NCBI GenBank assembly: GCA_036003705.1
Contig: DASYSE010000121.1
Coordinates: 530-64,529 of the forward strand
Source: Actinomycetes bacterium
GTDB taxonomy: Bacteria; Actinomycetota; CALGFH01
Direction of reading: 5' to 3'
DNA: 64,000 nucleotides
Of this stretch, positions 43,734 through 62,559 are shown piece by piece. A program made the translations under genes and the position numbers. Each line of letters begins with the position of its first letter. Positions within the stretch are counted from its first letter, which is position 1. The notes under the pieces were generated by a model, which worked only from the letters and a program-made list of their open reading frames with translations, made no database searches and had not been told where the DNA came from.

Positions 43734-44537
43734 GTGAGCGCCCGGGAAAGGGAGCACCCGGTGGAGGGAGCGGTCGAGGTCCGCGGCGTGAGCAAGTCGT
43801 TCCCGCGCCACCGGGGCGGCGAGCTCCGAGTTCTGAACGATGTCTCCTTCTCCCTCGACGCCGGGACCTTCATCTGCCTGGTCGGCCCCAGCGGCTGCGG
43901 GAAGTCGACCCTCCTGCGGATCATCGATGGGCTGATCCCGCCCGACTCCGGCGAGGTGCTCATCGGCGGCCAGAGGGTCCGTGCGCCCTCGCTGGACCGT
44001 GGATTCGTGTTCCAGCAGTTCAACCTCCTGCCATGGCGCACCGTGCTCGGGAACGTGGAGTTCGGGCTGGAGAACCTGGGGGTGAGGAAGCAGGAACGGC
44101 GGCGGCGCGCGCGCGAGGTCATCAAGCTCGTGGACCTCGAGGGGTTCGAGACCTACTACCCCAGTCAGCTGTCCGGGGGGATGCAGCAACGTGTCGGCCT
44201 GGCCAGGGCGATCGCCGTGGAGCCGGCGATCCTGTTGATGGACGAGCCGTTCGGCTCGGTGGATGACCAGACCCGGATGCTCCTCCAGGACGAGCTCCTC
44301 AAGATCTGGGAGCAGGCCCAGAAGACCGTCATCTTTGTCACCCACGACATCGAGGAGGCGCTCTACCTGGGGGACAAGATCGTGGTCATGTGCGCCCGAC
44401 CGTCGCGCATCAACCGGATCCTGGAGGTCCCGTTCGGACGACCTCGAACCGACGAGATCCGAGGGGCCCCGGAGATGGGCCATCTCAAGCAGGAGATCTG
44501 GGAGGAACTGAAGTCCGGGGCCACGGTGGAGGGGTGA
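43734..44537 (+). CDS. ABC transporter ATP-binding protein (NitT/TauT family)
   Basis: Walker A GPSGCGKST, signature LSGGMQQRVGLARA, Walker B LLMDEPFG. Confidence 0.9.
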   Translation: MSAREREHPVEGAVEVRGVSKSFPRHRGGELRVLNDVSFSLDAGTFICLVGPSGCGKSTLLRIIDGLIPPDSGEVLIGGQRVRAPSLDRGFVFQQFNLLPWRTVLGNVEFGLENLGVRKQERRRRAREVIKLVDLEGFETYYPSQLSGGMQQRVGLARAIAVEPAILLMDEPFGSVDDQTRMLLQDELLKIWEQAQKTVIFVTHDIEEALYLGDKIVVMCARPSRINRILEVPFGRPRTDEIRGAPEMGHLKQEIWEELKSGATVEG

Positions 44538-44539
44538 GG

Positions 44540-45403
44540 ATGAGATCGGAGACGAGGGTCTCATCCGAGGGAGACCTCGTCTCCGGGGGCGACCAACCGG
44601 CGTTGTCCAGGCGCGGCACCGAGGACAGTCTCCCGGGATGGAGGCGCCTTCTCCGCAACAAGTGGGTGCTGCGGGCCCTCTTCTACGGGGCCATCCTGGC
44701 GGTGTGGCAGGCCACCGCCGTCATCAAGGGCGAGTTCTTCCTCCCCACCCTCCCCCAGACCGTCAGGGGATTCGGCGAGATCTTCACCGAGGGCTACGCG
44801 GGGACGCTGCTGGGGACGCTCCGCCAGCTGGTCTCCGGCTTCCTGATCGCCCTGGTCATCGCCATCCCAGTGGGTGTGCTGATGGGCCGGTTCCGGTTCG
44901 TCGAGGACCTCCTCGCTCCCTATGTCAACACGCTGTTCGTGACCCCCAAGCAGGCGCTGCTGCCGATCATCATCGTCGCCGTCGGCATCGGGTTCTGGTA
45001 CCGCACCTGGGTCGTCGTCCTCTTCGCCGTCTTCTTCCCCATCATCAACACGGCCGCGGGCGTCCGCTACGTGGACACGGAGCTCCGGGAGACCGCGCGG
45101 GCGTTCGGGACGGGCCGGTGGCGGATGTTCAGCCGGATCTACCTCCCGGCATCCGCCCCGTTCGTCGTGGCCGGGATCCGGCTCGGCTTCGGGATGGCCA
45201 TGAAAGGCATGGTGATCGCGGAGCTTTGGATCTTCGCGGGGGCCGGGAACCTGCTGGAGACCTTCTCCCGGTCTCCGCTACGGCTCGATCTCTACTACCC
45301 CCTCGTGCTGCTCATCATCATCTTCGCGGTCTGCGTCAACGAGCTGCTCAAGTGGGCGGAGCGAAAGCTCCGGCCGGCCGCGCAGGCGACCGGGCAGGTG
45401 TAA
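44540..45403 (+). CDS. ABC transporter permease (NitT/TauT family)
   Basis: ATG 44540, 2 nt after the ATPase stop. TM spans. ..ETARAFGTGRWRMFSRIYLPASAP... Confidence 0.85.
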   Translation: MRSETRVSSEGDLVSGGDQPALSRRGTEDSLPGWRRLLRNKWVLRALFYGAILAVWQATAVIKGEFFLPTLPQTVRGFGEIFTEGYAGTLLGTLRQLVSGFLIALVIAIPVGVLMGRFRFVEDLLAPYVNTLFVTPKQALLPIIIVAVGIGFWYRTWVVVLFAVFFPIINTAAGVRYVDTELRETARAFGTGRWRMFSRIYLPASAPFVVAGIRLGFGMAMKGMVIAELWIFAGAGNLLETFSRSPLRLDLYYPLVLLIIIFAVCVNELLKWAERKLRPAAQATGQV

Positions 45404-45407
45404 CGCG

Positions 45408-46226
45408 ATGTCCGAGCTGGAGGGAGCGACGCAGCAGCGGGTCTGGGCGCGGCGGCCAGGCGCCGGACGCCGCCGCCACCTGGACCGCGGCAAGCTCGCC
45501 CGATGGACCCTGTCCATCGCGCTCTTCTTCGTCCTGTGGGAGGCCGTCGGCAGGAGCGGCCGCATCATCGCAATCCTTCCGGCTTCGGAGGTACTGCCCG
45601 ACCTCGCACAGCAGATCGCCGAGGGTGAGATCCTCCGGGCCACGCTGGGCACGCTCACGATCGCCGGCGTCGGATTCGCCATCGGGGCCGCCATCGGAGT
45701 CCCGACCGGTGTGCTGCTCGGAGTGTCGGAGCGCTGGTCGAGCGTCCTGGACCCGCTGGTGAATGCGTCGCTGTCGGCGCCGATCGCGATGTTCATCCCG
45801 GTCATCGCCGTGTACCTCGGCCTGGAGTTCAAGGCGAAGGTGGTGGGGGTCCTGCTCTTCAACGTCTTCGTCATCATCGTCAACACCGCCACCGGGATCC
45901 GGGAGGTGCCGCCCAGCGTCGTCGAGATGGGTCGGGCCTTCGGGACCAGCCCCTCCGCCATGTACCGGCGGATCATCCTGCCCTGGGCGAGCCCCTACAT
46001 CATCACGGGACTGCGGATCGGCGTCGGCCGATCCGTCGAGGGAGCGATCCTGTTCGACCTGTTCCTGCGGACCGAGAACCTGGGTCTGGTCATCCGGAAC
46101 GCGGCGGGGTCGTTCGACCTCAGCACACTGCTGGGTTCGGTGTTCTTCATCACGATCATCGCCGCCGGGACGATGGGTCTCGCCCGCATCGTCGAGTGGC
46201 GCCTGCTCCGGTGGAAGACGGGATGA
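45408..46226 (+). CDS. ABC transporter permease (NitT/TauT family), second copy
   Basis: Track ORF of 272 aa. ..EMGRAFGTSPSAMYRRIILPWASP... Confidence 0.85.
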   Translation: MSELEGATQQRVWARRPGAGRRRHLDRGKLARWTLSIALFFVLWEAVGRSGRIIAILPASEVLPDLAQQIAEGEILRATLGTLTIAGVGFAIGAAIGVPTGVLLGVSERWSSVLDPLVNASLSAPIAMFIPVIAVYLGLEFKAKVVGVLLFNVFVIIVNTATGIREVPPSVVEMGRAFGTSPSAMYRRIILPWASPYIITGLRIGVGRSVEGAILFDLFLRTENLGLVIRNAAGSFDLSTLLGSVFFITIIAAGTMGLARIVEWRLLRWKTG

Positions 46227-46299
46227 GCGAAGGAAGGCGGGGACCTTCCCGATCACGACGACGGCGGCGTTGTCCGCCGAAACGAGGAGGTGGATCCGG

Positions 46300-47391
46300 G
46301 TGAAGCAGCTCGTCAGGGTGCTCGTGCTCGCGAGCGTGGTCGCGCTGGTGGCCGCCGGGTGCGGCGAGGATGAGGCGCCGTCCTCCGGTCCGAAGCCGGT
46401 GCGGGTGGTGACCAGCTCCACCGGACAGGCGTACGTGGGACAGTTCCACGCCGCCGAGCTGTTCGGTGACAAGTTCGGGCTCGCCTCGAACAACCAGCTG
46501 ACCGAGTTCGAGGACGAGGGGGCCGCCGCGCAGGTGCTGGTCTCGGGCGGGGCCGATGCCGGCTCCACCGGACTGACCCAGGTCATTCAGCTCATCAGTC
46601 GAGGGCAGAAGCTGAAGGCGTTCTGCCCCGTCCAGGTGGACAGCACCGAGCAGCTCGTCGGGATCACCAGCAAGATCAACTCGCTCAACCAGATCACCGA
46701 CCCGAAGATCCGGGTGGCCGTTGACAGTCCCGGTGGCCTGGTGAACTTCATCATGAACCTGGTGTTCCAGCAGAAAGGCCTCGGGGTCAAGGTCAGCGAC
46801 CTCAAGAACGTGACCGTCCTGGGGGACGGGAGCCAGCGCCTGGCCGCGCTCGCGGCCGGCCAGGTGGACGTGGGCTCGGTCGACCTCTTCGAGCTCCCCG
46901 ACCTGCAGAAGCAGGTCGGGGCCGAGAACGTGACCACCCTCAGCGTCACCGCGGCCGATGCCGACTTCCTGGCCAACATCTACTACGCCTCGACCAAGTG
47001 GCTCGATGAGAACACGGACCTTGCCGGGCGGTTCTGCGCGGCCACGCTGTACTCCAACCGGGTCCTCGCGGCCGACTACAAGCAGTACAAGGCGGCGGTG
47101 GACAAATACATCAAGGGAGGGGTCGACGAGTCGATCACCAAGACCAACTGGGACTTCGCACGCAAGTATCAGATCTGGCCCTACAACGACGACGTGATGA
47201 CCCCGGAGGCCATCAAGACCGTCATCGACGTGGGCGTGGCCTCGGAGCTGCTGGAGAGCCCGGCCAAGGACTACACCTTCGACGACATCGTCGACACGCG
47301 GCCGCTGAAGATCGCGATGGACCTCGTCGGAGGGCCGGTGAGCGCCGACGACATCCTGGCCGGTACGGTGCCGGCGCCGAAGGGCGGCTAG
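46300..47391 (+). CDS. ABC transporter substrate-binding lipoprotein (NMT1/THI5-like fold suspected)
   Basis: GTG 46300 after GAGGAGG. Lipobox LVLASVVALVAAGC. In frame within track ORF 45763..47391. Confidence 0.75.
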   Translation: MKQLVRVLVLASVVALVAAGCGEDEAPSSGPKPVRVVTSSTGQAYVGQFHAAELFGDKFGLASNNQLTEFEDEGAAAQVLVSGGADAGSTGLTQVIQLISRGQKLKAFCPVQVDSTEQLVGITSKINSLNQITDPKIRVAVDSPGGLVNFIMNLVFQQKGLGVKVSDLKNVTVLGDGSQRLAALAAGQVDVGSVDLFELPDLQKQVGAENVTTLSVTAADADFLANIYYASTKWLDENTDLAGRFCAATLYSNRVLAADYKQYKAAVDKYIKGGVDESITKTNWDFARKYQIWPYNDDVMTPEAIKTVIDVGVASELLESPAKDYTFDDIVDTRPLKIAMDLVGGPVSADDILAGTVPAPKGG

Positions 47392-47428
47392 GAGGAGCCC
47401 GGGAGGCGTCGAACATGGAGGTGAGCGG

Positions 47429-48100
47429 ATGAGCGAGGGTGGACCCCCACGAACCGGGTTGCCGCTGGCAAGGGTCGCCCCTGCGACGACCCGTCTCCTG
47501 GTCGTGGACGTGCAGAACGACTTCCTGGCCGACGGTGGGTGGTTCGCCAACCACGGGCACGATCTCGAGCCGATGCGCCGGGCCGTGGACAACGTGGAAC
47601 GGTTCATCCCGGTGGCCCGGGCCGCGGGCGTCCGGCCGATCTTCATCAGGGCGATCTACGACGAGAAGTGGCTCTCCAAGCCGATGCTGGAACGCCATGA
47701 GCTCGTCGGCCTGGACAGCCGTCACTGTCAGGAAGGCACCTGGGGAGCGGAGTTCTATGTGGTGCGCCCGCAGCCCCAGGACGACGTCATCGTCAAGCAT
47801 CGCTACAGCGCCTTCATCGGGACCGAGCTGGACCCGCTGCTTCGTGCCCAGGGTGTCGAGAACCTGATCATCGTGGGGGTGACGACCAACGTGTGCGTCG
47901 AGTCCACCGCCCGCGACGGCTACATGCTCGACTACCACATCGTCCTGGTGGAGGACTGCACCGCCTCCTACAGCGAGGAACCGCATCGGGCAACCCTGGC
48001 CAACATCCGCCGGGCCTTCGGCCGCGTCGTGACGGCCGAGGAGGTCACCTCGGTCTGGCGTGAGGCCGAGCTCCTGCCGAGGGTGGCCGCGGCGGTCTGA
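47429..48100 (+). CDS. isochorismatase-family cysteine hydrolase (amidase type)
   Basis: Track ORF of 223 aa. Motifs LLVVDVQNDF, ..IIVGVTTNVCVESTARDG... Confidence 0.85.
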   Translation: MSEGGPPRTGLPLARVAPATTRLLVVDVQNDFLADGGWFANHGHDLEPMRRAVDNVERFIPVARAAGVRPIFIRAIYDEKWLSKPMLERHELVGLDSRHCQEGTWGAEFYVVRPQPQDDVIVKHRYSAFIGTELDPLLRAQGVENLIIVGVTTNVCVESTARDGYMLDYHIVLVEDCTASYSEEPHRATLANIRRAFGRVVTAEEVTSVWREAELLPRVAAAV

Positions 48101-48171
48101 TCCGGCAGGGGTCGAGGTGGCTGGCCGGCCTGCGCTGCGCGAGGGTCCGCTGACGGGCGGAAGAGGGGCAT

Positions 48172-49326
48172 GTGAAGATCACCGGTGTCGAGACGTTCAT
48201 GGTGGCGCTCCCGTGGCGCCGCCTGCACAAGATGGCGTTCCCTGGCGAGGTGCTCGGTCGCTACGTGATCGTTCGGCTGCGCACCGACGACGGCCTGGAG
48301 GGTCTCGGCGAGGCGACCGTCATCAAGGAGTGGGGCGGGGACCACGGGAGGTACTTCGGGGAGTCCCCTGAGCTCACCGGGCGGCTGATCGATTCGGTGC
48401 TGGGCCCGACCCTCCTCGACCAGGACCCGTTCGACCTGGAGGCCGCGCATCGACGGATGGACCTGGCCGTCAAGGGCTATCCCTATGCCAAGGCGGCGCT
48501 GGACGAGGCGCTGCACGACATCAAGGGCAAGGCCCTGGGCGTTCCGGTCTACCAGTTGCTCGGTGGGCTGGTCCGCGAGGAGATCCCGATCGCCCACAGC
48601 CTGGGATGGATGGACTATGACGAGGCCACCAGCGAAGCCGCCGCGGCGGTCGACGAAGGCATCAAGACCATCAAGATCAAGGTGGGACGCGACGCGGCCT
48701 ACGACGTGCGGATCGTGCGGGAGGTGCGCCAGACGATCGGCCCGGACCGCGACATCGTCGTGGACGCCAACCAGGGCTGGCCCACCCCCAAGTACGCCAT
48801 CGCCATTCTCAGGAGGATGCAGGAGTACGGGATCCGGTACGCGGAGCAGCCGGTGGAGGGGCTGGCGCAGATGGCCAGGGTGGCGCAGGCCGTCGATCTG
48901 CCGATCATGGCCGACGAGAGCGCCTGGACCCCCCAGGACGTGCTGGAGATCGTGGAACGCGGGGCCGCGGACATGATCTCGCTCTACACGACCAAACCAG
49001 GCGGCCTGTTCAAGGCGAAGAAGGTGGCTGCGGTGGCCGAGGCGGCCGGGTTGCCGCTGAACGTGAACGGGTCCCACGAGACCGGTGTGGGCAACGCCGC
49101 GAACCTCCATCTGGTGGCCTCCACCGCTGCGGTGACCGAGGCCGGGGTCTTCCCGGTGACCTCCCTCCGCGAGAATCGGCCCACCCGGATGGCCGGCCGG
49201 ATGTACCTGGACGACATCGTGACCCGTCCCTTCGAGTACCGGGACGGCTGCCTGATCGTCCCCAGGTCACCCGGCCTCGGGGTCGAGCTCGACATGGACA
49301 AGATCGTCGAGTACCGGGTCCGGTAG
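48172..49326 (+). CDS. enolase-superfamily enzyme, mandelate racemase/muconate lactonizing family
   Basis: GTG start. Motifs IKIKVGRD, VVDANQGW, YAEQPV, IMADES. Confidence 0.85.
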   Translation: MKITGVETFMVALPWRRLHKMAFPGEVLGRYVIVRLRTDDGLEGLGEATVIKEWGGDHGRYFGESPELTGRLIDSVLGPTLLDQDPFDLEAAHRRMDLAVKGYPYAKAALDEALHDIKGKALGVPVYQLLGGLVREEIPIAHSLGWMDYDEATSEAAAAVDEGIKTIKIKVGRDAAYDVRIVREVRQTIGPDRDIVVDANQGWPTPKYAIAILRRMQEYGIRYAEQPVEGLAQMARVAQAVDLPIMADESAWTPQDVLEIVERGAADMISLYTTKPGGLFKAKKVAAVAEAAGLPLNVNGSHETGVGNAANLHLVASTAAVTEAGVFPVTSLRENRPTRMAGRMYLDDIVTRPFEYRDGCLIVPRSPGLGVELDMDKIVEYRVR

Positions 49327-49415
49327 GGGCGCGCGGATGACGATCGAGACCGTCGCCGTGGTCGAGTACCGGGTCCGGTAGAGGCGCGCAGATGGCGATC
49401 GAGACCATCGCCGTG
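49306..49415. repeat. 55-bp tandem duplication of the gene junction (3' end of 48172 gene + start of 49392 gene)
   Basis: GTCGAGTACCGGGTCCGGTAG-N10-ATGRCGATCGAGACCRTCGCCGTG at 49306-49360 and 49361-49415. Confidence 0.9.
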
Positions 49416-50525
49416 CTGGGGGCCGGGAACGGTGGCTGTGCGGCCGCCGCCGACCTCGGAGGACGGGGCTTCGAGGTCCGGCTCTACAACCGGTCCCGGG
49501 AGCGGCTGGAGCCGCTGATCCGGCGGGGCGGACTGGAGCGGCAGGGGGCGGCTGGCGAGGGGTTCGTTGAGCTCGCGCTGATCACCGACGACCTCGATGC
49601 GGCGGTGGACGGCGCGGACCTCATCATGCTCACGGTCCCGATCTCCGCCCATCCCTTCTACGCCCAACGGCTCGGCCCGATCCTGCCGCCGGGGGGTGCG
49701 GTGTTCCTCAACCCGGGGCACATGGGCGGCGGCCTGTTCATGGCCCACGAGATCCACCGGCTGACCGGTCGAACCGACGTCCGGACCTGCGAGGTGAGCA
49801 CCCTCAGCTACGCGTGCCGGATGCGCGGGCCGGCCTCCGTCAACATCCTTGGGGTGATGCAGAGCCTGCCCTTCGCGGCCTTCCCGGGCCGGATGCAGGA
49901 CGAGCTGTTCGAGCTGCTCCGACCCCTGTATCCCAGTCTGGTCCAGGCGAGCCACGTGCTGGAGACCGGGTTCATGGACATCAACGCGGTCGAGCACCCG
50001 CCGCAGATCATCTGCAACGCGGGCTGGGTGGAGCACACCAAGGGGGCGTACCTCTTCTACTACGAGGGGACCACGCCCTCGGTGGGACGGGTGATCGACA
50101 CCCTGGACCGGGAGCGGCTGGCCGTCGCCGAGGCGGCCGGCGTGCCCACCAGACCGTTCGTCCAGGTGTTCCACGAGATGGGGTACACCACCGAGGGCGC
50201 GGCCAGGGAGGGGACCGCTCACGCCGCCCTGCAGGAGAGCGCGCCGAATCGTTGGATCCGAGGCCCGCAGAGTCTCGACCACCGGTACATGCACGAGGAC
50301 GTCGGCTGGGGGCTCGTGCCCTGGTCGGAGCTGGGTCGGTCCCTCGGCGTCCCCACGCCGGTGATGGATGCCCTGATCACGCTGGCTTCCGCCCTGAACG
50401 GCCGGGACTACCGGGCGGAAGGTCTCACCCTGGACCGGCTGGGCCTGGCCGGGAAGCGAACGGACGAGCTGGCCGGGTACCTCCGGGACGGCATCCCGGA
50501 ACGGGAGGACAGGCCGCCGGGTTGA
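49392..50525 (+). CDS. NAD(P)-dependent opine (octopine/nopaline) dehydrogenase family protein
   Basis: Track ORF of 377 aa. IAVLGAGNGGCAAAADL Rossmann motif. Length and layout fit opine dehydrogenases. Confidence 0.75.
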   Translation: MAIETIAVLGAGNGGCAAAADLGGRGFEVRLYNRSRERLEPLIRRGGLERQGAAGEGFVELALITDDLDAAVDGADLIMLTVPISAHPFYAQRLGPILPPGGAVFLNPGHMGGGLFMAHEIHRLTGRTDVRTCEVSTLSYACRMRGPASVNILGVMQSLPFAAFPGRMQDELFELLRPLYPSLVQASHVLETGFMDINAVEHPPQIICNAGWVEHTKGAYLFYYEGTTPSVGRVIDTLDRERLAVAEAAGVPTRPFVQVFHEMGYTTEGAAREGTAHAALQESAPNRWIRGPQSLDHRYMHEDVGWGLVPWSELGRSLGVPTPVMDALITLASALNGRDYRAEGLTLDRLGLAGKRTDELAGYLRDGIPEREDRPPG

Positions 50526-50553
50526 TTTCTATCAAAGGTAGGATAATATATCC
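50522..50553 (+). promoter_or_regulatory. sigma-70-like promoter (TTGATT-16-TAATAT) overlapped by the palindrome GGATA-ATA-TATCC
   Basis: TTGATT 50522-50527, TAATAT 50544-50549, palindrome 50541-50553, then AGGGGG and ATG 50572. An AT-rich island in GC-rich DNA. Confidence 0.4.
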
Positions 50554-50571
50554 ACAAGACAGGGGGCGCTC

Positions 50572-55343: not shown

Positions 55344-56403
55344 GCCCGGAGGGCATACGAGCCATCGACGCTCCACGGAGGCAGGGCCGTTGACCGGACT
55401 CATCGATGTGCATTCGCACCACTACCCGGACGCCTACCTGGAGGCCTGCCGGCGACCGGAGAGCGGGTTCACCCACTACGACCGGGACGATGGCCGGTTG
55501 ATCGTCCTCCAGGACGGCGCGGTCGGGCTGGCCGTGCCGCAGCCGCTGCCACCCCTCGAGCATCGCATCGGGATGATGGATGACGCGGGGGTCGAGGTGC
55601 AGGTCCTCTCGGTCTCGGCGCCCAACGTCTTCCGGTTCCCCGAATCGCTGCGCATCCCGCTCACGCGCGACCTGAACGACGAGCTCTCCGACTTGGCGGG
55701 TGGCGCGGGGGGACGACTGCGGGTGTTCGCCAGCCTCCCGCTTCCGGCGGTGGATGCCGCCCTGGAGGAGCTGGAGCGCGCGCTGGCGCTACCGCAGGTG
55801 GCCGGCATCGTGATCTGTTCCAACATCGACCGCATCAACCTCGACCACGAGCGGTTCTCCCCGGTGTGGGAGGAGCTGTCGCGCCGCGGGACCACGGTGT
55901 TCTGCCATCCCACCGTGGCGTGCTGCACGGACGGCCTGCGCGAGTACGCCATGTCCCTGGCCATGGGCTTCATGGCCGACACCATGTTCGCGGTGGGCCG
56001 GCTCGCGTATGCAGGGACGTTCGACCGCTTCCCGGGGATCCGGTGGATCTTCACCCATCTCGGCGGGACCATCCCCTTCGTCCTGCCCAGGTACGACAAC
56101 TACTTCCGTCAGTTCCCGGAGTGCCGGGCGAAGATCACCCGCCCGCCGTCGGAGATCATGGGGGAGCTGTACTACGACACCGTGACCATGCACGCGCCGG
56201 CCCTCCGCTGTGCCGTGGACACGCTCGGGACCGAGCGCCTGGTCTTCGGGTCGGACTATCCGCACGTGCCCGGTGGGATCGACCGGTTCGTGACCGTCCT
56301 CAACTCCGTCGGCCTGTCCGAAGGCGAGCTGGCGATGATCGGCCGCCGCACGGCGGCGGGACTGATCGGCCTGGAGGAATCGCAGCCCGTGAAAGGCGGC
56401 TGA
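55336..56403 (+). CDS. amidohydrolase_2 (ACMSD-like decarboxylase/hydrolase) family protein
   Basis: Motifs LIDVHSHHYP, ..FCHP.., ..VFGSDYPHV... Start is ATG 55336 (8-nt overlap) or TTG 55390. Confidence 0.8.
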   Translation: MAEPGGHTSHRRSTEAGPLTGLIDVHSHHYPDAYLEACRRPESGFTHYDRDDGRLIVLQDGAVGLAVPQPLPPLEHRIGMMDDAGVEVQVLSVSAPNVFRFPESLRIPLTRDLNDELSDLAGGAGGRLRVFASLPLPAVDAALEELERALALPQVAGIVICSNIDRINLDHERFSPVWEELSRRGTTVFCHPTVACCTDGLREYAMSLAMGFMADTMFAVGRLAYAGTFDRFPGIRWIFTHLGGTIPFVLPRYDNYFRQFPECRAKITRPPSEIMGELYYDTVTMHAPALRCAVDTLGTERLVFGSDYPHVPGGIDRFVTVLNSVGLSEGELAMIGRRTAAGLIGLEESQPVKGG

Positions 56404-56406
56404 GTC

Positions 56407-57792
56407 GTGAAGACCATCGTCCGAGGCGGGCGCATCGTCACCTCGTCGCTCACCTTCGAGGCGGACATCCTGATCGAGGGCGAGACGATCGCTGCCCTTG
56501 GGTCGTTGCCCGAGGTCCAGGCCGACCGGATCGTCGATGCCACCGGCCGGCTCGTCCTTCCGGGCGGCGTCGACCCGCACACGCACCTCGACGCCCCCCT
56601 GAAGGGGACGATCACCGCCGACGACTTCTACTCGGGGACGGTCGCCGCCGCGATCGGTGGGACCACGACCATCATTGACTTTCCCGTGCAGGAGAAGGGG
56701 CAGGATCCTCGCAGCTCCCACCAGGAATGGTATGGACGCGCCGAGGAGAAGGCGGTGGTGGACTGGGGACTGCACCAGGTCATCACGGACCTCCCGGACG
56801 CCTTCTTCCCGGCCCTCGACGAGCTGATCCGCGAGGGCTCACCGAGCTTCAAGATGTTCATGGCCTACCCGGGCGCCCGCATGGTGGACGACGGCGTGAT
56901 CTTCAAGGCCATGCGGCACACCGCCGAGAACGGTGGCTTCGTGCTGATGCACTGCGAGAACGGCCTGGTGATCGACCTCCTGGAGAAGGAGGCGATCGCC
57001 GCCGGGAGGGTCGATCCCGTGTACAACTCGGTGACCAGACCCCCGGTCACCGAGTCGGAGGCCACGGCTCGGGCGATCGCGCTGGCCGAGCTGGCGGGGG
57101 TACCGGTGTACGTGGTCCACCTGTCCGCGGCTCCCGCCCTCGAGGCGGTGGCTGCGGCCCGCGACCGGGGCCTGCCCGTGTACGCGGAGACCTGCCCGCA
57201 CTATCTCCTCCTCACCGACGAGAAGCTGTCCGAGCCGGACTTCGGCGGGTCCAAGTACGTGATGTGTCCGCCGCTGCGCACACCGGCGCACCAGGAACGG
57301 TTGTGGAAGGGGCTGCTGACCGACGAGCTCCAGGTGGTGTCGACGGACCACACCCCCTTCCGGTTCGAGGGACAGAAGCAGATGGGCCGGGGCAACTTCC
57401 CCAAGATCCCGAACGGCGTCCCGGGGATCGAGTGGCGAACCGCCCTGATGTACCACTTCGGCGTCCGGGCGGGACGGATCGACCTCAACCGGTTCGTGGA
57501 GCTGATCGCGACCAACCCGGCGAAGCTCTTCGGATGCTATCCACGCAAGGGCGAGATCGCCCCCGGCTCGGACGCCGACCTCGTGGTCTTCGATCCGGAG
57601 CAGGAGGTCACCCTCAGCGCCAGGACCCAGGCCACGATGAGCGACTACAACCCCTACGAGGGATGGGCCATCCGGGGGGCGGTGGAGACCGTCCTGCTGC
57701 GCGGGTCGATCATCGTCGAGTCGGGGAGATTCGTGGGTTCCAGAGGCCAGGGCCGGTTCCTGCGGAGAGGGGCGTCCTCCGCGCTGGCCTGA
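56407..57792 (+). CDS. dihydropyrimidinase / D-hydantoinase-type cyclic amidohydrolase
   Basis: GTG start. Motifs PGGVDPHTHL, ..SFKMFMAY.., ..VMHCENG.., ..VVHLS.., ..VSTDHTPF... Confidence 0.85.
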   Translation: MKTIVRGGRIVTSSLTFEADILIEGETIAALGSLPEVQADRIVDATGRLVLPGGVDPHTHLDAPLKGTITADDFYSGTVAAAIGGTTTIIDFPVQEKGQDPRSSHQEWYGRAEEKAVVDWGLHQVITDLPDAFFPALDELIREGSPSFKMFMAYPGARMVDDGVIFKAMRHTAENGGFVLMHCENGLVIDLLEKEAIAAGRVDPVYNSVTRPPVTESEATARAIALAELAGVPVYVVHLSAAPALEAVAAARDRGLPVYAETCPHYLLLTDEKLSEPDFGGSKYVMCPPLRTPAHQERLWKGLLTDELQVVSTDHTPFRFEGQKQMGRGNFPKIPNGVPGIEWRTALMYHFGVRAGRIDLNRFVELIATNPAKLFGCYPRKGEIAPGSDADLVVFDPEQEVTLSARTQATMSDYNPYEGWAIRGAVETVLLRGSIIVESGRFVGSRGQGRFLRRGASSALA

Positions 57793-57840
57793 CCCGGCGC
57801 GCCGGCCTCCGACCAGCGCCGTCGAGATGGGAGCACCGCA

Positions 57841-59313
57841 GTGAGGGAGAGACCGGCGGCCCCAGCCGCCGCCAAGGGGGGTCGCACCTTTCTCGAGGGG
57901 CTCGATTTCGTTCTCACCGTCGACCCCGAGGACCGGGTCATCCGCCACGCCACGCTGGTCATCGAAGGGCAGCGGCTCGTCGCGGTGGGACCGGCGGAGG
58001 ACGTGGCGCGTTCCCACCGCCCCTCGCCCGGCGACGTGGTGGTCGACGGCGCGACCCTCGGCGCCACCCCCGGGTTCGTCGACACGCATGTTCACCTGTC
58101 GGAGACCCTGACCAGGGCCAGCTTCCCGGACCGTCTCGGCACCCGCGCCTGGGTCTTCCACTGGATCATGCCCTTCTACGGACAGCTCACCGAGGGGGAC
58201 GAGCGTGTCGCGGTGACCCTGGGGGCGGTGGAGATGCTGCGGTCGGGCACCACCTGCTTCCTCGACATGGGCGCCCTGACGGACCCGCGGACGACGGTCC
58301 CGGAGCTCGCCCGGACCGGCATCCGTGGGGTGACCGGGCGTCATGCCGCGGACGTCCGGCCAGCGGCATCCCCGAAGGGCTGGTCCGAGGCGATGATGGA
58401 CCGCCACTTCTTCCCCGACGCCGGGACCGCCCTGGAGGAGCTGGAGGCCTGCGTCCGGGAGCTGGACGGCACAGCGAGCGGCCGCATCAGGTGCTGGGTC
58501 AACATCCAGGGAAAGGAGCCGTGCAGCGCCGAGCTCCACGTCGGCGCCCGGGAGCTGGCGGAGCGGTTCGGGGTCGGCACCACCTATCACATCGCCTCGA
58601 CGCTGGAGGAGGCACGGTCGGTCGAGCGCCGCCACGGGCGGACCCCCATCGCCCGCATCGCCGCGCTCGGTGGGCTCGGGCCCAACCTCGTGCTCGCCCA
58701 CGCGGTCGCGACCAGCGACGAGGAGATCGCGATCCTCGCCGAGCACGACACGAAGGTGGCGTTCTGTCCCGGGACGTCGCTCAAGCTGGCCAAGGGAGCC
58801 ACCCGGATCGGGAAGTACCCGGAGATGCTGCGGGCGGGCGTGACCGTCGGCCTGGGGACCGACGGGGTGTCGGCCTCCGGCAGCCTCGACCTGAAGCGGC
58901 AGATGTATCTGGTTGCGGGGCTGTTCAAGGACGCACGGATGGACCCTGAAGCCGTCGGCGCGGCGCGGGCGCTCCGGATGGCCACCATCGACGGAGCCCG
59001 GGCCCTCGGGATGGAGGGCGAGATCGGCTCACTGGAGCCGGGCAAGAAGGCCGACTTCGTCCTCTTCGACCTCGACCACATCGAATGGGTTCCCTACCGA
59101 GACCCACTCCAGGCGCTGGTGTGGTCGGCGAGCTCGGCCAGCATCCGGCAGACGTGGGTGGATGGGCGTCCGGTCCTGGTCGACGGCACCCTCACCACGG
59201 TGCCGGACGAGCCGGATCTGCGAATGGAGGCCCGCGCTCGGGCCGACCGGCTGATCCGGGCGGCAGGTCTGGACGCTCCCGACGTCCCGCTCACCACGTC
59301 GCTCTACCAGTAG
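57841..59313 (+). CDS. amidohydrolase-family deaminase/chlorohydrolase-like enzyme
   Basis: Track ORF of 490 aa. Motifs PGFVDTHVHLSET, ..YHIAST.., ..LAHAV.., ..GLGTDG... Confidence 0.8.
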   Translation: MRERPAAPAAAKGGRTFLEGLDFVLTVDPEDRVIRHATLVIEGQRLVAVGPAEDVARSHRPSPGDVVVDGATLGATPGFVDTHVHLSETLTRASFPDRLGTRAWVFHWIMPFYGQLTEGDERVAVTLGAVEMLRSGTTCFLDMGALTDPRTTVPELARTGIRGVTGRHAADVRPAASPKGWSEAMMDRHFFPDAGTALEELEACVRELDGTASGRIRCWVNIQGKEPCSAELHVGARELAERFGVGTTYHIASTLEEARSVERRHGRTPIARIAALGGLGPNLVLAHAVATSDEEIAILAEHDTKVAFCPGTSLKLAKGATRIGKYPEMLRAGVTVGLGTDGVSASGSLDLKRQMYLVAGLFKDARMDPEAVGAARALRMATIDGARALGMEGEIGSLEPGKKADFVLFDLDHIEWVPYRDPLQALVWSASSASIRQTWVDGRPVLVDGTLTTVPDEPDLRMEARARADRLIRAAGLDAPDVPLTTSLYQ

Positions 59314-59337: not shown

Positions 59338-60183
59338 TCAGGACGAGGATCTGCTGGAGGAGCGTCGCTGGAGCAGGCCGAGGATGATCTCGTTGGTCGC
59401 GGCGATGTGGTCCATCATGGCATGCCGGGCCGCGGCGCCGTCCCTGCGGGCGATCGCGTCCACGATCTTCCCGTGCTGCCCGGTCGATCGCGCCACCGGA
59501 TCCCCGTTGTCGCGGGCGAACGGCAGGTAGGCCAGGATGTCGTGCAGGCGCATCTGCTCCTCGAGCACGAGGTCCAGGACGCGGTTGGAGTTGGCCGCGT
59601 GCGTGATCGCGATGTGGAGGGTGGAGTCGGCCTGGCGCAGATCGGGCACGGTGGCCGATTGAGAACGCTCCAGGAGCCAGCGCAGCACCTCGATCTGCTC
59701 GTCGGTCGCCCGGCTCGCCGCCAGCTCGGCGGCTGCCGGCTCAACCGACGTGCGCAGGTCGAGCAGGTCCTGGAGGGTGCCGCCCATCTCACGGATGCTG
59801 CGCGTGATCTCCGCGCGGCTGAGCTGGCGGATCTGGCGCGACGCGACGAACGTCCCCCCTAACCGGCCCCGGCTCGTCTTCAGGTAGCCCTGCTGCTGCA
59901 GTGCCCGGACCGCCTCTCGGAGGGTGGTCCGGCTCACCCCGAGCCGCTCCACGAGCTCACGCTCGGGGGGCAGCCGGGCACCGACCGACAGCGCACCCAG
60001 CTTGATGGCCTGGGCCAGTCGCTGGACCGCGACCTCATAGGCGCTGTGCCAGTGAGCATGCCGGAGGAAAACGTCGTCCAGCACCGCCGAGACTCCGGGG
60101 GGCATGGCGTCATGAACCGATGTGCCGCCGGCGTCACGAACCACCATGTCTCCGTCCTCACCTGTGCAGGCCGCGGCGCTCAT
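59338..60183 (-). CDS. GntR-family regulator, FadR/FCD subfamily
   Basis: wHTH LPPERELVERLGVSRTTLREAVRALQQQGYL and an all-helical FCD-like C-terminus. Start uncertain. Confidence 0.85.
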   Translation of the reverse strand: MSAAACTGEDGDMVVRDAGGTSVHDAMPPGVSAVLDDVFLRHAHWHSAYEVAVQRLAQAIKLGALSVGARLPPERELVERLGVSRTTLREAVRALQQQGYLKTSRGRLGGTFVASRQIRQLSRAEITRSIREMGGTLQDLLDLRTSVEPAAAELAASRATDEQIEVLRWLLERSQSATVPDLRQADSTLHIAITHAANSNRVLDLVLEEQMRLHDILAYLPFARDNGDPVARSTGQHGKIVDAIARRDGAAARHAMMDHIAATNEIILGLLQRRSSSRSSS

Positions 60184-60230
60184 GCGAGCCCAACGGCAGT
60201 ATAGTCATTCCTCCTTCCATTACTCATCAC

Positions 60231-61466
60231 CTACTCATCACTCGCACCCCGGACAGCATGCAGCCTGTCGGACATCCAGTCGCACATCAGGGGGACGAGC
60301 GTTGCGTTGTAGTTCGTGCACGTGTGGAACCCGTCCTCGAAGTTGACGAATTCCGCCAGCGAACCCCCGGCCATCCGCCGTCCCTCCTCGAGGCTCACCA
60401 GCTCGTCCCGCGCGCCGTGGATCACCATGTACGGGACGCGGATCAGCTCGACGGCCCCGGCCAGGCTGCATCGCTCCTCAAGGTAGACGCGGGCCTCCGA
60501 GAGGGAGTCCACCATCAGGTCCTCCATCACGTTCAGCTGGGTGGAGACCGGCCAGTACCGGTAGTCCCGGAAGTCGTAGAACCCCCCCGAAGAGATGGCC
60601 ACGCGGATCCGCGGCTCGAACGCGGCCGCCCGCAGCGCCAGGAATCCCCCCATGCTGCTACCCCAGATGCCGACGCGGTCCGCGTCGACCATCCCGGAAG
60701 CCGCCAGGGCATCGATGGCGGCGCCGATCGGCTCCTCCCAGGCATCGGGGCGCATCGGGAGGACGCCGACCATCTCGCCCTGACCGGGACCGTCCATGGT
60801 CAGGACGGCGAGACCCCGGCGCACGAACTGCCGAGCCCAGTTGTGATACTCCTCCTTCACGGAATCCGCCCCGTTGACCATGATCACGCACGGAGGATCC
60901 CCTTCGGCGGCACCCGCGGCGTCCGGAACATGCAGGTAGCCCGGCAGTCGGGCGCCGTTGAACGGGATGTGCACGGGCTCGATCCGCGCGTCGAGGTGCT
61001 CGATCGCCCGCCGGTAGCATCGGACACGCCCCGCCCGGCCCTCGATCTTCTGCTCGCTCCCCATCCGGGCGAGATACTGGCCCCAGTGGTGGCACATGGA
61101 GGCGCGGTGAAACATGTCCCCCGCGGAGACGACGCGGCCCTCGGCCAGGAAGCGTTCGGCCATCTCCTCCGCCTGGACGGCCTCTGCGTGCCAGGCGTCA
61201 TACCAGGCCCGCAGGTCGACGACCCGGCTGAGGATGCGCTGGAGGTCGCTGAAGTCCAGGGGGCCGGTCACCTCCATCCGGGCCAGCCGGACGACCACGT
61301 ATCGCGACCCGAGGTGTTCCGCGCCATGCAGGCGGATCCAGGTCGAGAGCGTCTGGTAGTAACGCTCCACCTCCTGCCGGTCGGATTCGATCAACGCCCC
61401 ACCCCCAAATCCGGTTGATGGCGCCCTGGGACCGGCCCCGGGTCCCGGCGGGCTATCGGAGGACAT
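60231..61466 (-). CDS. alpha/beta-fold hydrolase (dienelactone / C-C hydrolase-like)
   Basis: Track ORF of 411 aa. Nucleophile elbow IWGSSMGG; ..VIHGARDELV... Start uncertain (ATG 61466 overlaps the upstream gene by 14 nt). Confidence 0.75.
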   Translation of the reverse strand: MSSDSPPGPGAGPRAPSTGFGGGALIESDRQEVERYYQTLSTWIRLHGAEHLGSRYVVVRLARMEVTGPLDFSDLQRILSRVVDLRAWYDAWHAEAVQAEEMAERFLAEGRVVSAGDMFHRASMCHHWGQYLARMGSEQKIEGRAGRVRCYRRAIEHLDARIEPVHIPFNGARLPGYLHVPDAAGAAEGDPPCVIMVNGADSVKEEYHNWARQFVRRGLAVLTMDGPGQGEMVGVLPMRPDAWEEPIGAAIDALAASGMVDADRVGIWGSSMGGFLALRAAAFEPRIRVAISSGGFYDFRDYRYWPVSTQLNVMEDLMVDSLSEARVYLEERCSLAGAVELIRVPYMVIHGARDELVSLEEGRRMAGGSLAEFVNFEDGFHTCTNYNATLVPLMCDWMSDRLHAVRGASDE

Positions 61467-62559
61467 CCAGAGGAAGCATCGCGCTCACGACGAAATTTGG
61501 CGCGTCGACAAGCTCGCTGATCCTCAGGTCGACCGCGACGCTGCAGAGCGCGTAGGCCTGCTGACGCGTGAACCCGTAGTCCGCGCCGAGGAGCTGGATC
61601 ATGTTGCGCAGGGCGTTGCGGGCGGCCAGGTTGAGGTCCTCCGCCCGCCCTCCGGAGTCCGCGTACACCGAGAGCCCCGTGGTGGCGATGTAGGGGCCGT
61701 CGGGCCGATTCCCGCCAGCCCGGTTCCCCGAGAACCTCACGTCGCGCATCGCCTGAGCGGCCGCGGCGCCCTTGATGAGGTCGAACCTGACGTGGAGGGT
61801 CGCCGCGGTCTCGATGGCGGTGCCGCAGGCCTCTCCGTCCCCCTGGGCGAAATGACCATCGCCCGCTGAGAACAGAGCCCCGTCGGTCCACACCGGGAAG
61901 AGGACCCGCGACCCCGCGACCAGCTGCTTCACGTCGAGGTTCCCGCCGTTCTCCCGGGGCGGCTTGGTGCGCAGCCCCTCATGTGCGATCCGGTCGTCCT
62001 CGGGGACCGCCCCCCGGGGCTCGGGGAGTGCCACCTCCTCGCCGCCGTCCGCCAGCGCGCGCTCGCGGGCGGTGATCCGAGCAAGCAGCTCCCGGGAGGG
62101 GGCGACGCCCATCGTGCCCATGAACGGCGCGGCCGGGATGCGGACCCCCGGCAGATCGGGGGAGGCGGCCCAGCCATCGCCGATCTCCCATCGCACCAGG
62201 AACGGGGCCGGGAACTCGTCGCGGAGGAATCCGAAGCCTGGGATCTGGGCCGTGTAGCCGAAGCTGGACGGCCTGACATCCAGGATGTCGACGGCGAGCA
62301 GATCGCCCGGCTCCGCGCCCTCGATCAGGATCGGCCCGGTCAGCGGACAGACGACGCTGCGATCGGCTCGGGGGACGTCCTCGTGGCTCGAGGCCATCGT
62401 AAACTGACCGTCCACGGCGTCCCTGGTGGTCATGACGACGTCGTCCCCCGGACGGCACACCAGCCCGGGTGAGATGTCGGGATGCCATCGGTTATGGCAC
62501 CGGCTCGGCTCCTCGCGAATGGGGATCGAGAGATCCACGCGAAGCTCATGACTGGCCAT
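61453..62559 (-). CDS. acetamidase/formamidase family amidohydrolase
   Basis: ATG 62559 (MASHELRVDLS..). Motifs CPLTGPILIEGAEPGDLLAVDI, GGNLDVKQL, FSAGDGHFAQGDGE. Confidence 0.85.
   Translation of the reverse strand: MASHELRVDLSIPIREEPSRCHNRWHPDISPGLVCRPGDDVVMTTRDAVDGQFTMASSHEDVPRADRSVVCPLTGPILIEGAEPGDLLAVDILDVRPSSFGYTAQIPGFGFLRDEFPAPFLVRWEIGDGWAASPDLPGVRIPAAPFMGTMGVAPSRELLARITARERALADGGEEVALPEPRGAVPEDDRIAHEGLRTKPPRENGGNLDVKQLVAGSRVLFPVWTDGALFSAGDGHFAQGDGEACGTAIETAATLHVRFDLIKGAAAAQAMRDVRFSGNRAGGNRPDGPYIATTGLSVYADSGGRAEDLNLAARNALRNMIQLLGADYGFTRQQAYALCSVAVDLRISELVDAPNFVVSAMLPLDVLR

Follow-up and report, generated by a model that had tools for sequence, protein, structure and literature searches.

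A recurring hydrolase-rich gene cluster with a DpaA-like signature gene in Actinomycetota, Alphaproteobacteria and Betaproteobacteria

Gene content and borders of the cluster

The stretch of DNA analysed here (the window; 64 kb, 72% G+C) comes from contig DASYSE010000121.1 of an Actinomycetes bacterium and contains, at approximately 42103-62616, an island of about 20 kb rich in hydrolase genes. By its gene content and order, this island is one complete copy of a recurring gene cluster whose family spans Actinomycetota, Alphaproteobacteria and Betaproteobacteria. As far as could be found, this widespread catabolic cluster is uncharacterised, and our literature search returned no paper on this gene combination or giving the cluster a substrate. 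Which pools of organic nitrogen are open to soil bacteria depends on their gene clusters for N-heterocycle catabolism.

Third-position G+C served to call the genes, and the proteins were then scanned against Pfam and NCBIfam. An earlier note on this DNA had placed a hydrolase-dense island at 43734-62559. Its gene content stands, with all 19 listed genes recovered at their places by Pfam/NCBIfam, but its borders do not: the left edge moves to ~42103 and the formamidase gene ends at 62616. The left border is set at ~42103 because homologues of the HbpS/GlcG-like gene and of the adjacent alpha/beta hydrolase travel with the cluster elsewhere. HbpS/GlcG homologues (44-59% identity) lie directly upstream of the MR/MLE gene in four actinobacterial loci (L009-L012), an HbpS-like gene adjoins malate synthase G within the Aminobacter cluster, and homologues of the 42657-43541 hydrolase (54-60% identity) stand beside the DpaA/4-OT/VOC trio in Burkholderiales loci. 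The genes of the island are as follows.

42103-42504, minus strand: HbpS/GlcG-like small protein (PF03928, 113 bits), the island's left edge
42657-43541, minus strand: alpha/beta hydrolase (Abhydrolase_1, 84 bits), divergent from the importer operon
43734-44537, plus strand: ABC transporter ATPase, NitT/TauT type (ABC_tran, 113 bits; closest NCBIfam models, all scoring under their cut-offs, are SaoA and taurine ATPases)
44638-45403, plus strand: ABC permease 1 (BPD_transp_1)
45408-46226, plus strand: ABC permease 2 (BPD_transp_1)
46300-47391, plus strand: NMT1/THI5-like substrate-binding lipoprotein (SBP; PF09084, 37 bits), with an N-terminal lipobox LVAAGC
47429-48100, plus strand: isochorismatase-family amidohydrolase (PF00857, 160 bits), closest to ureidoacrylate amidohydrolase RutB
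48172-49326, plus strand: enolase-superfamily enzyme of the MLE subgroup (MR/MLE; MR_MLE_N and MR_MLE_C)
49392-50525, plus strand: opine dehydrogenase homologue (Octopine_DH, 140 bits)
50572-50772, plus strand: 4-oxalocrotonate tautomerase (4-OT) family protein (PF01361, 59 bits)
50769-51134, plus strand: single-module VOC metalloenzyme with a 2-His-1-Glu triad (PF00903, 58 bits)
51131-52087, plus strand: DpaA-like NAD(P)-binding dehydrogenase (DpaA_N, PF16924, 67.5 bits against a cut-off of 29.2), the signature gene of the cluster family
52084-53394, plus strand: FAD amine dehydrogenase/oxidase of the DAO family (PF01266, 228 bits)
53391-54503, plus strand: M24 hydrolase with a degenerate metal site (Peptidase_M24 and Creatinase_N)
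54534-55343, plus strand: short-chain dehydrogenase/reductase (SDR; adh_short, 147 bits)
55336-56403, plus strand: Amidohydro_2 enzyme of the non-oxidative decarboxylase type (PF04909, 109 bits)
56407-57792, plus strand: dihydropyrimidinase/D-hydantoinase-type cyclic amidohydrolase (TIGR02033, 567 bits against a cut-off of 393)
57841-59313, plus strand: TRZ/ATZ (COG0402) amidohydrolase, 'deaminase' (Amidohydro_1, 171 bits; no equivalog cut-off reached)
59338-60183, minus strand: GntR/FCD regulator (GntR and FCD domains), convergent with the operon
60231-61466, minus strand: FrsA/S9-like alpha/beta hydrolase (Peptidase_S9, 49 bits; FrsA-like, 45 bits)
61453-62616, minus strand: FmdA/AmdA-family formamidase/acetamidase (PF03069, 354 bits; FmdA equivalog 251 bits against a cut-off of 500)

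Sixteen of these genes, the importer followed by the enzymes, form a tightly packed plus-strand run (43734-59313) that meets a convergent minus-strand unit (62616-59338) consisting of the formamidase, the FrsA-like alpha/beta hydrolase and the GntR/FCD regulator. Between 45408 and 59313, neighbouring genes overlap by 4 nt or stand at most ~70 nt apart. Overlaps of a few nucleotides join the 4-OT, VOC, DpaA-like, DAO and M24 genes to one another and the SDR gene to the Amidohydro_2 gene, and the dihydropyrimidinase gene starts 3 nt after the latter. The start of the M24 gene is the ATG at 53391, with a 4-nt overlap of the DAO stop codon, and not 53414 or 53133. Neither an oxygenase family nor a molybdenum hydroxylase was found among the island proteins by Pfam/NCBIfam, and the VOC protein is the island's sole candidate dioxygenase.

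The island has a G+C content of 0.66-0.70, as against 0.72-0.75 upstream. Of 10 same-genus genomes, 2 have its DpaA-like marker gene; 10 other genomes of the family gave no match, and a phylum-wide sample of 301 genomes gave 7 (among them G133, an unpublished genome). This patchy presence and the 75-86% identity to loci that bear the label of another class are consistent with horizontal acquisition of the island.

Recurrence of the cluster across lineages

Neighbourhoods were surveyed with the DpaA-like protein as a rare marker, of which a 90%-identity database holds ~1,400 homologues at E<=1e-30. We took 45 loci from species-representative genomes, mapped all window proteins onto them by tblastn and used Pfam on the loci; labels of the form L0xx denote loci fetched from other genomes, and labels such as G133 genomes of the phylum sample.

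The enzyme block is kept at 65-90% amino-acid identity in ten loci of uncultured Actinomycetota, whose labels are Actinomycetes, Actinomycetota, Euzebyaceae and Solirubrobacterales. All enzymes from the isochorismatase through the deaminase are present in window order in L014-L016, while L017 is less complete, having no MR/MLE or SDR match and more distant Amidohydro_2 (50% identity) and deaminase (44%) proteins. The importer and a flanking formamidase (69-76% identity) accompany the cluster in L014, L016 and L017; L015 has the SBP only. The remaining six loci (L008-L013) keep the enzymes with small rearrangements. A 60%-identical copy of the GntR/FCD regulator stands at the same position in L013, and the FrsA-like hydrolase has a 56%-identical copy in L010 only.

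More distant versions share a smaller set of genes. Three further actinobacterial families have the 4-OT, isochorismatase, VOC, M24, MR/MLE, opine dehydrogenase, DpaA, cyclic amidohydrolase and COG0402 deaminase genes along with a CodA-like deaminase. Mycolicibacterium and Mycobacterium isolates contain a shorter core (NMT1 SBP, ATPase, permease, M24, deaminase, 4-OT, VOC, MR/MLE, opine dehydrogenase, DpaA and GntR), and an NMT1-type SBP is also part of the Aminobacter version. Large plasmids of Aminobacter, Shinella and Phyllobacterium encode ten orthologous components that are 40-60% identical to the window's, including DpaA (49-50%), M24 (47%), MR/MLE (45%) and the deaminase, the best conserved cluster enzyme (58-60% in Aminobacter and Shinella). 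Cultured carriers include Aminobacter aminovorans KCTC 2477 (plasmid pAA01, ~118-139 kb), Shinella sp. HZN7 (plasmid pShin-03, ~344-361 kb) and Mycolicibacterium sp. SCSIO 43805. Metagenome-assembled genomes (MAGs) of Burkholderiales combine the DpaA/4-OT/VOC trio with the window's left-hand alpha/beta hydrolase, and several also have M24, MR/MLE, SDR or Amidohydro_2 genes. Molybdenum hydroxylases occur only in these Burkholderiales relatives; L023, for example, joins cluster genes with two of them and a TctC receptor.

The DpaA-like, 4-OT and VOC genes are present in every lineage examined, and the M24 and MR/MLE genes in most. The heart of the cluster is formed by the DpaA-like, 4-OT and VOC genes, usually with M24 and MR/MLE, and is surrounded by a common shell of opine dehydrogenase, deaminases, cyclic amidohydrolase and isochorismatase, to which lineage-specific additions are made. 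In the window, the genes that define the cluster family are co-oriented: adjacent DpaA-like, 4-OT and VOC genes, an M24 gene with an EGHEK pattern at its metal-ligand positions, and the MR/MLE, opine dehydrogenase and COG0402 amidohydrolase genes.

Gene fusions also join members of the cluster. Aminobacter and Shinella encode an isochorismatase::VOC fusion, and one metagenomic protein (P0126) is a DpaA::VOC fusion with both domains complete, which is weak evidence. Two further long 'fusion' proteins, P0121 and P0122, were set aside as apparent read-through calls across frameshifts. The earlier note had proposed one catabolic island, a reading that the comparison supports. Its genes do not part into unrelated, separately conserved operons: twelve enzymes, the importer and the formamidase occur jointly in L014-L017, and a core of 7-10 genes is kept in mycobacteria, in the three further actinobacterial families and on alphaproteobacterial plasmids. 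The fusions add independent links.

A chance mosaic, in which unrelated small operons (importer, hydantoinase module, meta-cleavage-like module and formamidase) lie side by side with no common substrate, is very improbable. Such an origin could explain why sub-modules vary (core-only mycobacteria, trio-only Alphaproteobacteria MAGs, an isochorismatase of movable position), why a second promoter-like site precedes the 4-OT gene and why the FrsA-like hydrolase is rarely conserved nearby. It sits poorly with a full enzyme set in order in L014-L016 and a nearly full one in L017, ten components together on alphaproteobacterial plasmids, the fusions, translational coupling from 4-OT through M24 and between SDR and Amidohydro_2, and one palindrome type at both promoters.

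A recurring association with malate synthase

Malate synthase A (TIGR01344, 813 bits against a cut-off of 594) is encoded directly downstream and on the same strand in 8 of the 10 actinobacterial loci (L008, L009, L010, L012 and L014-L017), a count that corresponds to about three independent arrangements, since related loci share kinship. The gene follows either the isochorismatase or the deaminase. In Aminobacter, a block containing a D-amino-acid dehydrogenase of the DAO family, malate synthase G and the HbpS-like gene is located between the deaminase and the opine dehydrogenase; the window's DAO enzyme is 25% identical to this DAO-family protein. Because two malate synthase types and two DAO subfamilies have been recruited, the malate synthase association arose more than once. 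This repeated attachment makes glyoxylate a probable end product of the encoded pathway.

Enzymes of the conserved heart

The nearest solved relatives of the island enzymes are taken here as leads only. The DpaA-like protein matches dipicolinate synthase subunit A (DpaA/SpoVFA) structures over its full length (2rir, 91 bits; 3d4o, 85 bits), through both its DpaA_N and its Rossmann domains, and its GxGxxG motif is conserved in orthologues. It differs in falling below the DpsA/DpaA equivalog cut-offs (NF006162, 184 against 261 bits; TIGR02853, 164 against 320), in its place in a catabolic operon and in being always paired with 4-OT and VOC genes. The host is also not a spore-former of that type, and a search limited to the island found no DpaB-type flavoprotein partner. 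To our knowledge, the DpaA fold has so far been known only from spore dipicolinate synthesis.

The two small proteins encoded next to it have well-conserved active-site motifs. Pro-1 and a GR motif of the 4-OT protein are invariant across 37 orthologues. In the VOC protein, H11, H68 and E114 are invariant in 36 orthologues, as is a DGRP motif; its best matches, all weak, are the C-domains of extradiol dioxygenases and FosA.

One rival reading is a pyridine or piperidine (di)carboxylate route. On this account a picolinate-, pipecolate- or dipicolinate-like substrate has its ring oxidation state changed by the DpaA-like protein and the opine dehydrogenase, the tautomerase shifts a double bond, M24 or the dihydropyrimidinase opens a lactam or imide, and the isochorismatase cleaves the half-amide, a course akin to the nicotinate routes of Eubacterium barkeri and Aspergillus nidulans. 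The match to DpaA, a fold that binds dihydrodipicolinate (textbook knowledge), speaks for it, as do an OCD/ketimine-reductase homologue beside the cluster in L009-L012 and the usual sensing of carboxylates by GntR/FCD regulators. The Burkholderiales versions, moreover, have a layout typical of pyridine-carboxylate clusters: beside the trio, M24 and MR/MLE they encode a pair of molybdenum hydroxylases, a decarboxylase of the Amidohydro_2 family, alpha/beta hydrolases and a TctC carboxylate receptor. We nonetheless judge this route quite unlikely, since neither the window nor the other actinobacterial versions have a hydroxylase or oxygenase, two deaminases and ureide-type hydrolases imply more nitrogen than a pyridine has, and glyoxylate is not an expected product.

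The dip cluster of Alcaligenes faecalis JQ135, which acts on dipicolinate, has a DipD-type monooxygenase and a DipR operator GTATAC (PMC11472048). Compared by gene families and operator, identity with this system was rejected: the island has no oxygenase family, and GTATAC is absent from the inspected intergenic regions between the Burkholderiales GntR and DpaA genes, which have a GTGATCAC palindrome instead. Both differences also count against a pyridine-type route.

The top PDB match of the MR/MLE protein is 2p88 (191 bits), an N-succinyl-Arg/Lys racemase from Bacillus cereus; true muconate cycloisomerases come nearly level with it, at 188 bits. The opine dehydrogenase homologue matches N-(1-D-carboxyethyl)-L-norvaline dehydrogenase of Arthrobacter sp. 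1C (1bg6) over its full length (205 bits). Its source organism, an actinobacterium from soil, can use synthetic secondary amine dicarboxylates of the opine type for growth.

An opine dehydrogenase and a racemase could in principle also serve biosynthesis of an opine-type metallophore or another secondary amine, given that Octopine_DH enzymes such as CntM build staphylopine-type metallophores together with a racemase (general knowledge) and that the window enzyme is a clear family member. This is extremely improbable: there is no nicotianamine-synthase-like enzyme and no exporter in the window, and the cluster has an SBP-dependent importer, six hydrolases plus a formamidase, and a malate synthase attached in relatives.

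Enzymes that could release nitrogen

The cyclic amidohydrolase is the only island enzyme above a curated equivalog cut-off, and it scores far better with the dihydropyrimidinase model (567 bits) than with the allantoinase model (288 bits against a cut-off of 358). The isochorismatase-family protein is nearest to RutB (134 bits against a model cut-off of 378; 107 bits to RutB structure 8bkd) and more distant from N-carbamoylsarcosine amidase (58 bits). PDB neighbours of the TRZ/ATZ enzyme are MTA/SAH deaminase, atrazine chlorohydrolase and 8-oxoguanine deaminase, and those of the Amidohydro_2 enzyme are ACMSD (108 bits) and uracil-5-carboxylate decarboxylase (107 bits). The DAO flavoprotein matches the D-amino-acid dehydrogenase subfamily (225 bits) and glycine oxidase ThiO (149 bits), both below cut-off.

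The M24 protein stands out for its metal site. The five metal ligands of Pyrococcus prolidase (1pv9) are D209, D220, H284, E313 and E327. In the M24 protein the corresponding positions read E, G, H, E and K, so that two ligands are replaced (D220 by G and E327 by K) and one change, D209 to E, is conservative. Across Actinomycetota, Burkholderiales and mycobacteria, 18 of 19 orthologues share this E-G-H-E-K pattern (17 complete; the partial L017 sequence reads E-G-H-E). Creatinase has likewise lost most prolidase-type metal ligands. Because two of the ligands are lost in nearly all orthologues, and creatinase shows a similar loss, the M24 protein is probably not a peptidase; by sequence it is closer to prolidases (116 bits) than to creatinase (70 bits).

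A creatinine/creatine-type route is another rival reading. A cyclic acyl-guanidine, which might be creatinine or glycocyamidine or else an N-substituted analogue of the kind of a glycation-derived hydroimidazolone, would be deaminated to a hydantoin. Opening by the hydantoinase and decarbamoylation by the isochorismatase would give an N-substituted glycine, which would be oxidised to glyoxylate, with M24 as a creatinase-like amidinohydrolase on the open form. The island has the five superfamilies of both creatinine routes (amidohydrolase deaminase, cyclic amidase or hydantoinase, isochorismatase-type amidase, DAO flavoprotein and an M24 protein in which two of five metal ligands are gone), and would follow the same logic of ring deamination, opening, decarbamoylation and oxidation of an N-substituted glycine. 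In relatives there is in addition a CodA-type deaminase scoring above the PRK07583 cut-off, TRZ/ATZ enzymes can release alkylamines as well as ammonia (AtzB/AtzC, established knowledge), and the link to glyoxylate and malate synthase fits oxidation of a glycine derivative.

Several details make this route rather unlikely. Hydantoinase_A/B domains, those of the ATP-dependent N-methylhydantoinase (HyuA/HyuB), are absent from all 20 island proteins by Pfam, and only a metal-dependent, dihydropyrimidinase-type enzyme is present. The isochorismatase, M24 and DAO proteins are nearer to RutB, prolidases and D-amino-acid dehydrogenases, respectively, than to their creatinine-route counterparts, and the importer type differs. 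The most widely kept genes (DpaA-like, 4-OT, VOC, MR/MLE and opine dehydrogenase) have no counterpart in the creatinine route and would be left without a role, and the mycobacterial core lacks hydantoinase, isochorismatase and DAO.

The same enzymes can also be read as a purine- or pteridine-derived route. It would begin with deamination of an amino-oxo bicyclic base or a fragment of one, for which a guanine-like base, pterin-6-carboxylate/lumazine and aminoimidazole carboxamide are candidates. The dihydropyrimidinase-type enzyme would then open the pyrimidine ring, the RutB-like enzyme would cleave the product of ureido-acrylate type, and the Amidohydro_2 enzyme would decarboxylate it; the imidazole or pyrazine ring left over would yield glycine, formate or formamide, and finally glyoxylate. 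In purine-fermenting clostridia, xanthine is converted through ureidoimidazole-carboxylate, aminoimidazole and imidazolone to formiminoglycine. Five C-N hydrolases and a vinylogous-carbamate-type decarboxylase of the island map one-to-one onto this hydrolytic sequence. In line with it are an isochorismatase nearest to ureidoacrylate amidohydrolase, an Amidohydro_2 protein nearest to ACMSD and uracil-5-carboxylate decarboxylase, a deaminase whose neighbours include 8-oxoguanine and guanine deaminases, and the formamidase. NMT1/THI5 proteins bind pyrimidines (general knowledge), and conversion of glycine to glyoxylate fits the DAO enzyme and the malate synthase link.

This purine-type route is unlikely all the same. 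MR/MLE, opine dehydrogenase, DpaA-like and VOC proteins, again the most widely kept, are left without a role, the mycobacterial core lacks the ring-opening enzymes, and no enzyme reaches a purine-pathway equivalog cut-off. A cluster for a GTP-derived glycoside neighbours the island in the window (36-42 kb); a search of five further genomes that carry the catabolic cluster did not find the two side by side. We rejected a link between the two: the glycosyltransferase has no close homologue in four of those five genomes, and in the fifth a single weak glycosyltransferase match lies ~1.9 Mb from the catabolic cluster.

Comparison with known catabolic systems

Membership of known pathways was judged from the Pfam and NCBIfam scans of the island proteins. 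The earlier note held that no single known pathway accounts for the set, and the comparison agrees: the hydantoinase, creatinine and pyridine resemblances each fail at least one defining feature. Judged by protein families, each of the creatinine, hydantoinase, Pyd/Rut, nicotinate/picolinate, dip and allantoin systems is without at least one defining enzyme in the island and leaves the conserved heart unexplained.

The hydantoinase process shares with the island a D-hydantoinase/dihydropyrimidinase above cut-off, an amide/ureido hydrolase, an enzyme capable of racemisation and a flavoenzyme that resembles D-amino-acid dehydrogenase. The island's carbamoylase would, however, have an isochorismatase fold instead of belonging to the CN-hydrolase or M20 families, and its racemase candidate is a member of the enolase superfamily and not an Asp/Glu-type hydantoin racemase; neither of the usual enzymes was found among the island proteins. 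From the Pyd and Rut pyrimidine systems, the island has only the dihydropyrimidinase and the RutB-like protein, with no dihydropyrimidine dehydrogenase, beta-ureidopropionase, RutA or RutC-F.

The aerobic maleamate route of nicotinate or picolinate degradation is defined by a molybdenum hydroxylase, 2,5-dihydroxypyridine dioxygenase, N-formylmaleamate deformylase, maleamate amidase and maleate isomerase. The island has alpha/beta hydrolases and an isochorismatase, placed at family level, and no MoCoBD proteins, NicX-type dioxygenase or isomerase were found in it. Reductive nicotinate routes employ 6-hydroxynicotinate reductase and enamidase in Eubacterium barkeri and the hxn cyclic imidase and amidase in Aspergillus nidulans. 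The likeness would be in the order of steps, with an oxo-N-heterocyclic carboxylate being reduced by a nicotinamide enzyme, opened by a dihydropyrimidinase-like amidase and then acted on by an amidase. The specific enzymes of these routes are nevertheless absent from the island, the actinobacterial versions have no molybdenum hydroxylase, and the end product of these routes is not glyoxylate.

Allantoin and ureide regulons include glyoxylate-assimilating genes, such as gcl-glxR in E. coli and the malate synthase gene aceB1 of the AllR regulon in Streptomyces coelicolor. A cyclic ureide hydrolase, C-N hydrolases and malate synthase similarly come together in one locus here, the malate synthase in the window's relatives only. 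The island has no member of the allantoicase, AllC/allantoate amidohydrolase, AllA/ureidoglycolate lyase or UGlyAH families.

Candidate operators

Two AT-rich palindromes, which read GATAGTATC and GATAATATATC, precede genes of the island.

43709-43723, no strand: AT-rich palindrome TAAGATA-G-TATCTTA (TAAGATAGTATCTTA), candidate operator before the importer operon
50541-50553, no strand: AT-rich palindrome GGATA-ATA-TATCC, second candidate operator, before the 4-OT gene

The pattern GATA-N(1-5)-TATC occurs twice in the 64-kb window, in AT-rich spots before the importer operon and before the 4-OT gene, as compared with a chance expectation of 0.14; two or more occurrences arose in 0 of 100 shuffles. 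The palindromes point to co-regulation in this genome only, and both fit one regulator, probably the GntR/FCD protein.

The palindrome at 43709-43723 has the 10-mer AAGATAGTAT in common with a DNase footprint of DipR, a GntR/FadR protein that represses dipicolinate genes, at the dipB promoter (TTGAAGATAGTATACC; PMC11472048). The shared 10-mer may reflect chance or a common half-site preference. In seven Burkholderiales loci (L021-L025, L027 and L032), a promoter region TTGACC...CTGCTGTGATCACACTTC with the GTGATCAC palindrome is conserved between the GntR/FCD and DpaA-like genes, and this palindrome region is the likely operator of the Burkholderiales GntR/FCD regulator.

A proposed catabolic scheme

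The preferred interpretation, which we hold to be moderately likely, is that the cluster imports a nitrogen-rich carboxylated ring compound, removes its nitrogen hydrolytically and delivers its carbon as glyoxylate. The substrate class, an N-heterocycle or amide, is suggested by the enzyme families. Most plausibly, the substrate would be an N-heterocyclic 2-carboxylate, or a cyclic amidine or ureide with an N-(carboxyalkyl) secondary-amine link, and it would enter through the NMT1/THI5-type ABC importer.

Nitrogen release would fall to a series of hydrolases. The TRZ/ATZ amidohydrolase could take ammonia or an amine off an amidine carbon, and the dihydropyrimidinase-type enzyme could open a cyclic amide or ureide, with the resulting ureido or amide group being converted to ammonia and CO2 by the RutB-like isochorismatase. 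The M24 protein with its degenerate metal site would, like creatinase and ectoine hydrolase, act on an amidine or lactam by cleaving it, and the formamidase would remove a C1 amide.

The DpaA-like, 4-OT, VOC, MR/MLE and opine dehydrogenase proteins would act on a ring or secondary-amine 2-carboxylate intermediate. Their predicted steps are epimerisation at the alpha-carbon, NAD(P)-linked (de)hydrogenation of a C-N or C-C bond, imine/enamine or keto/enol tautomerisation, and metal-dependent isomerisation or cleavage. An N-substituted 2-carboxylate intermediate is our best unifying guess because characterised relatives of the DpaA, M24, MLE, opine dehydrogenase and DAO proteins bind such compounds. 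Carbon would leave as glyoxylate, probably along with a 2-oxo acid. The DAO flavoenzyme or the opine dehydrogenase, acting on glycine or an N-carboxymethyl amine, could be the source of the glyoxylate, which malate synthase would then assimilate. The GntR/FCD protein is a probable repressor of both promoters through the two GATA..TATC palindromes.

A more specific version of this scheme is offered tentatively. The cluster might encode an undescribed route in which no oxygenase or molybdenum hydroxylase takes part. An N-heterocyclic 2-carboxylate would be dearomatised or cleaved by a DpaA-fold dehydrogenase together with a 4-OT protein and a VOC enzyme of the 2-His-1-Glu type, five hydrolases would free the nitrogen, and the carbon would pass to glyoxylate. 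Under such a route, the substrate could be an overlooked and abundant nitrogen compound of soil, for instance a pterin or pyrazine carboxylate, an oxidised pyrimidine or ureide, or a glycation-derived hydroimidazolone.

Several observations weigh against the general scheme. All island enzymes other than the dihydropyrimidinase are assigned at family level, and the cyclic amidohydrolase and isochorismatase of the window share only 27-36% identity with their counterparts in other consensus versions and may not be orthologous to them. Alphaproteobacteria MAGs have the trio only, beside an SMP-30-type lactonase and with no hydrolases. Because of this lactonase context, and because of the molybdenum hydroxylases found in Burkholderiales, the DpaA/4-OT/VOC trio may be a general module that is not substrate-specific. 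The malate synthase of this genome is encoded away from the cluster on another contig (C105), and no malate synthase lies beside the cluster in the mycobacterial or Shinella versions. Finally, the window palindromes are not conserved before the 4-OT or ABC genes of distant loci.

Solving the pathway would give functions to at least five misnamed subfamilies ('dipicolinate synthase subunit A', 'Xaa-Pro peptidase', 'opine dehydrogenase', '2-hydroxymuconate tautomerase' and 'glyoxalase') and a catabolic role to the DpaA fold. Experimental handles are available in cultured strains that have the cluster on sequenced plasmids, in glyoxylate as a predicted read-out, and in the SBP and the GntR regulator with its candidate operator.

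Other features of the window and of related loci

A short duplication lies across the junction of the MR/MLE and opine dehydrogenase genes.

49306-49415, plus strand: 55-nt tandem duplication, two copies, 93% identical, spanning the MR/MLE end, the spacer and the opine dehydrogenase start

The first copy creates a 14-codon open reading frame (ORF), MTIETVAVVEYRVR, in which the N-terminus of one of the two genes is linked with the other gene's C-terminus. To the right of the formamidase gene (window positions 62616-63963), ~270 bp without a convincing ORF are followed by a frame for a PcaD-like alpha/beta hydrolase (62887-63963; NCBIfam, 50 bits).

Additional genes accompany the cluster in its relatives. 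Six actinobacterial loci (L008-L013) have a thiamine pyrophosphate (TPP) enzyme beside it, for example at L009:19024-20802 and L013:16523-18265, both on the minus strand. Its assignment as glyoxylate carboligase was rejected (55-60 bits against a cut-off of 791), the nearest model being the unassigned PRK08327 (420-424 bits, slightly below its cut-off of 456). An ornithine-cyclodeaminase/ketimine-reductase (OCD) family gene lies just upstream of the cluster in L009-L012, and in L009, L010 and L012 the opine dehydrogenase and 4-OT genes are separated by an inserted malic-enzyme-like gene. In L009 these neighbours are located as follows.

L009:2800-3981: OCD homologue, neighbour of the cluster
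L009:7815-9479, minus strand: malic-enzyme-like gene, insert of the cluster

A 227-amino-acid protein without a Pfam/NCBIfam match is encoded between the cyclic amidohydrolase and 4-OT genes at L055:16249-16932 and L054:16240-16923; it is 74% identical between Aminobacter and Shinella and is annotated as 'resolvase' in one record. A CobW-type GTPase and RidA are likewise encoded in the L054 and L055 clusters. The DpaA-like match in two genomes that share a genus of another family (G133:C25 and G219:C175) contains one in-frame TGA, which could be a sequencing error, the mark of a pseudogene or a case of recoding.

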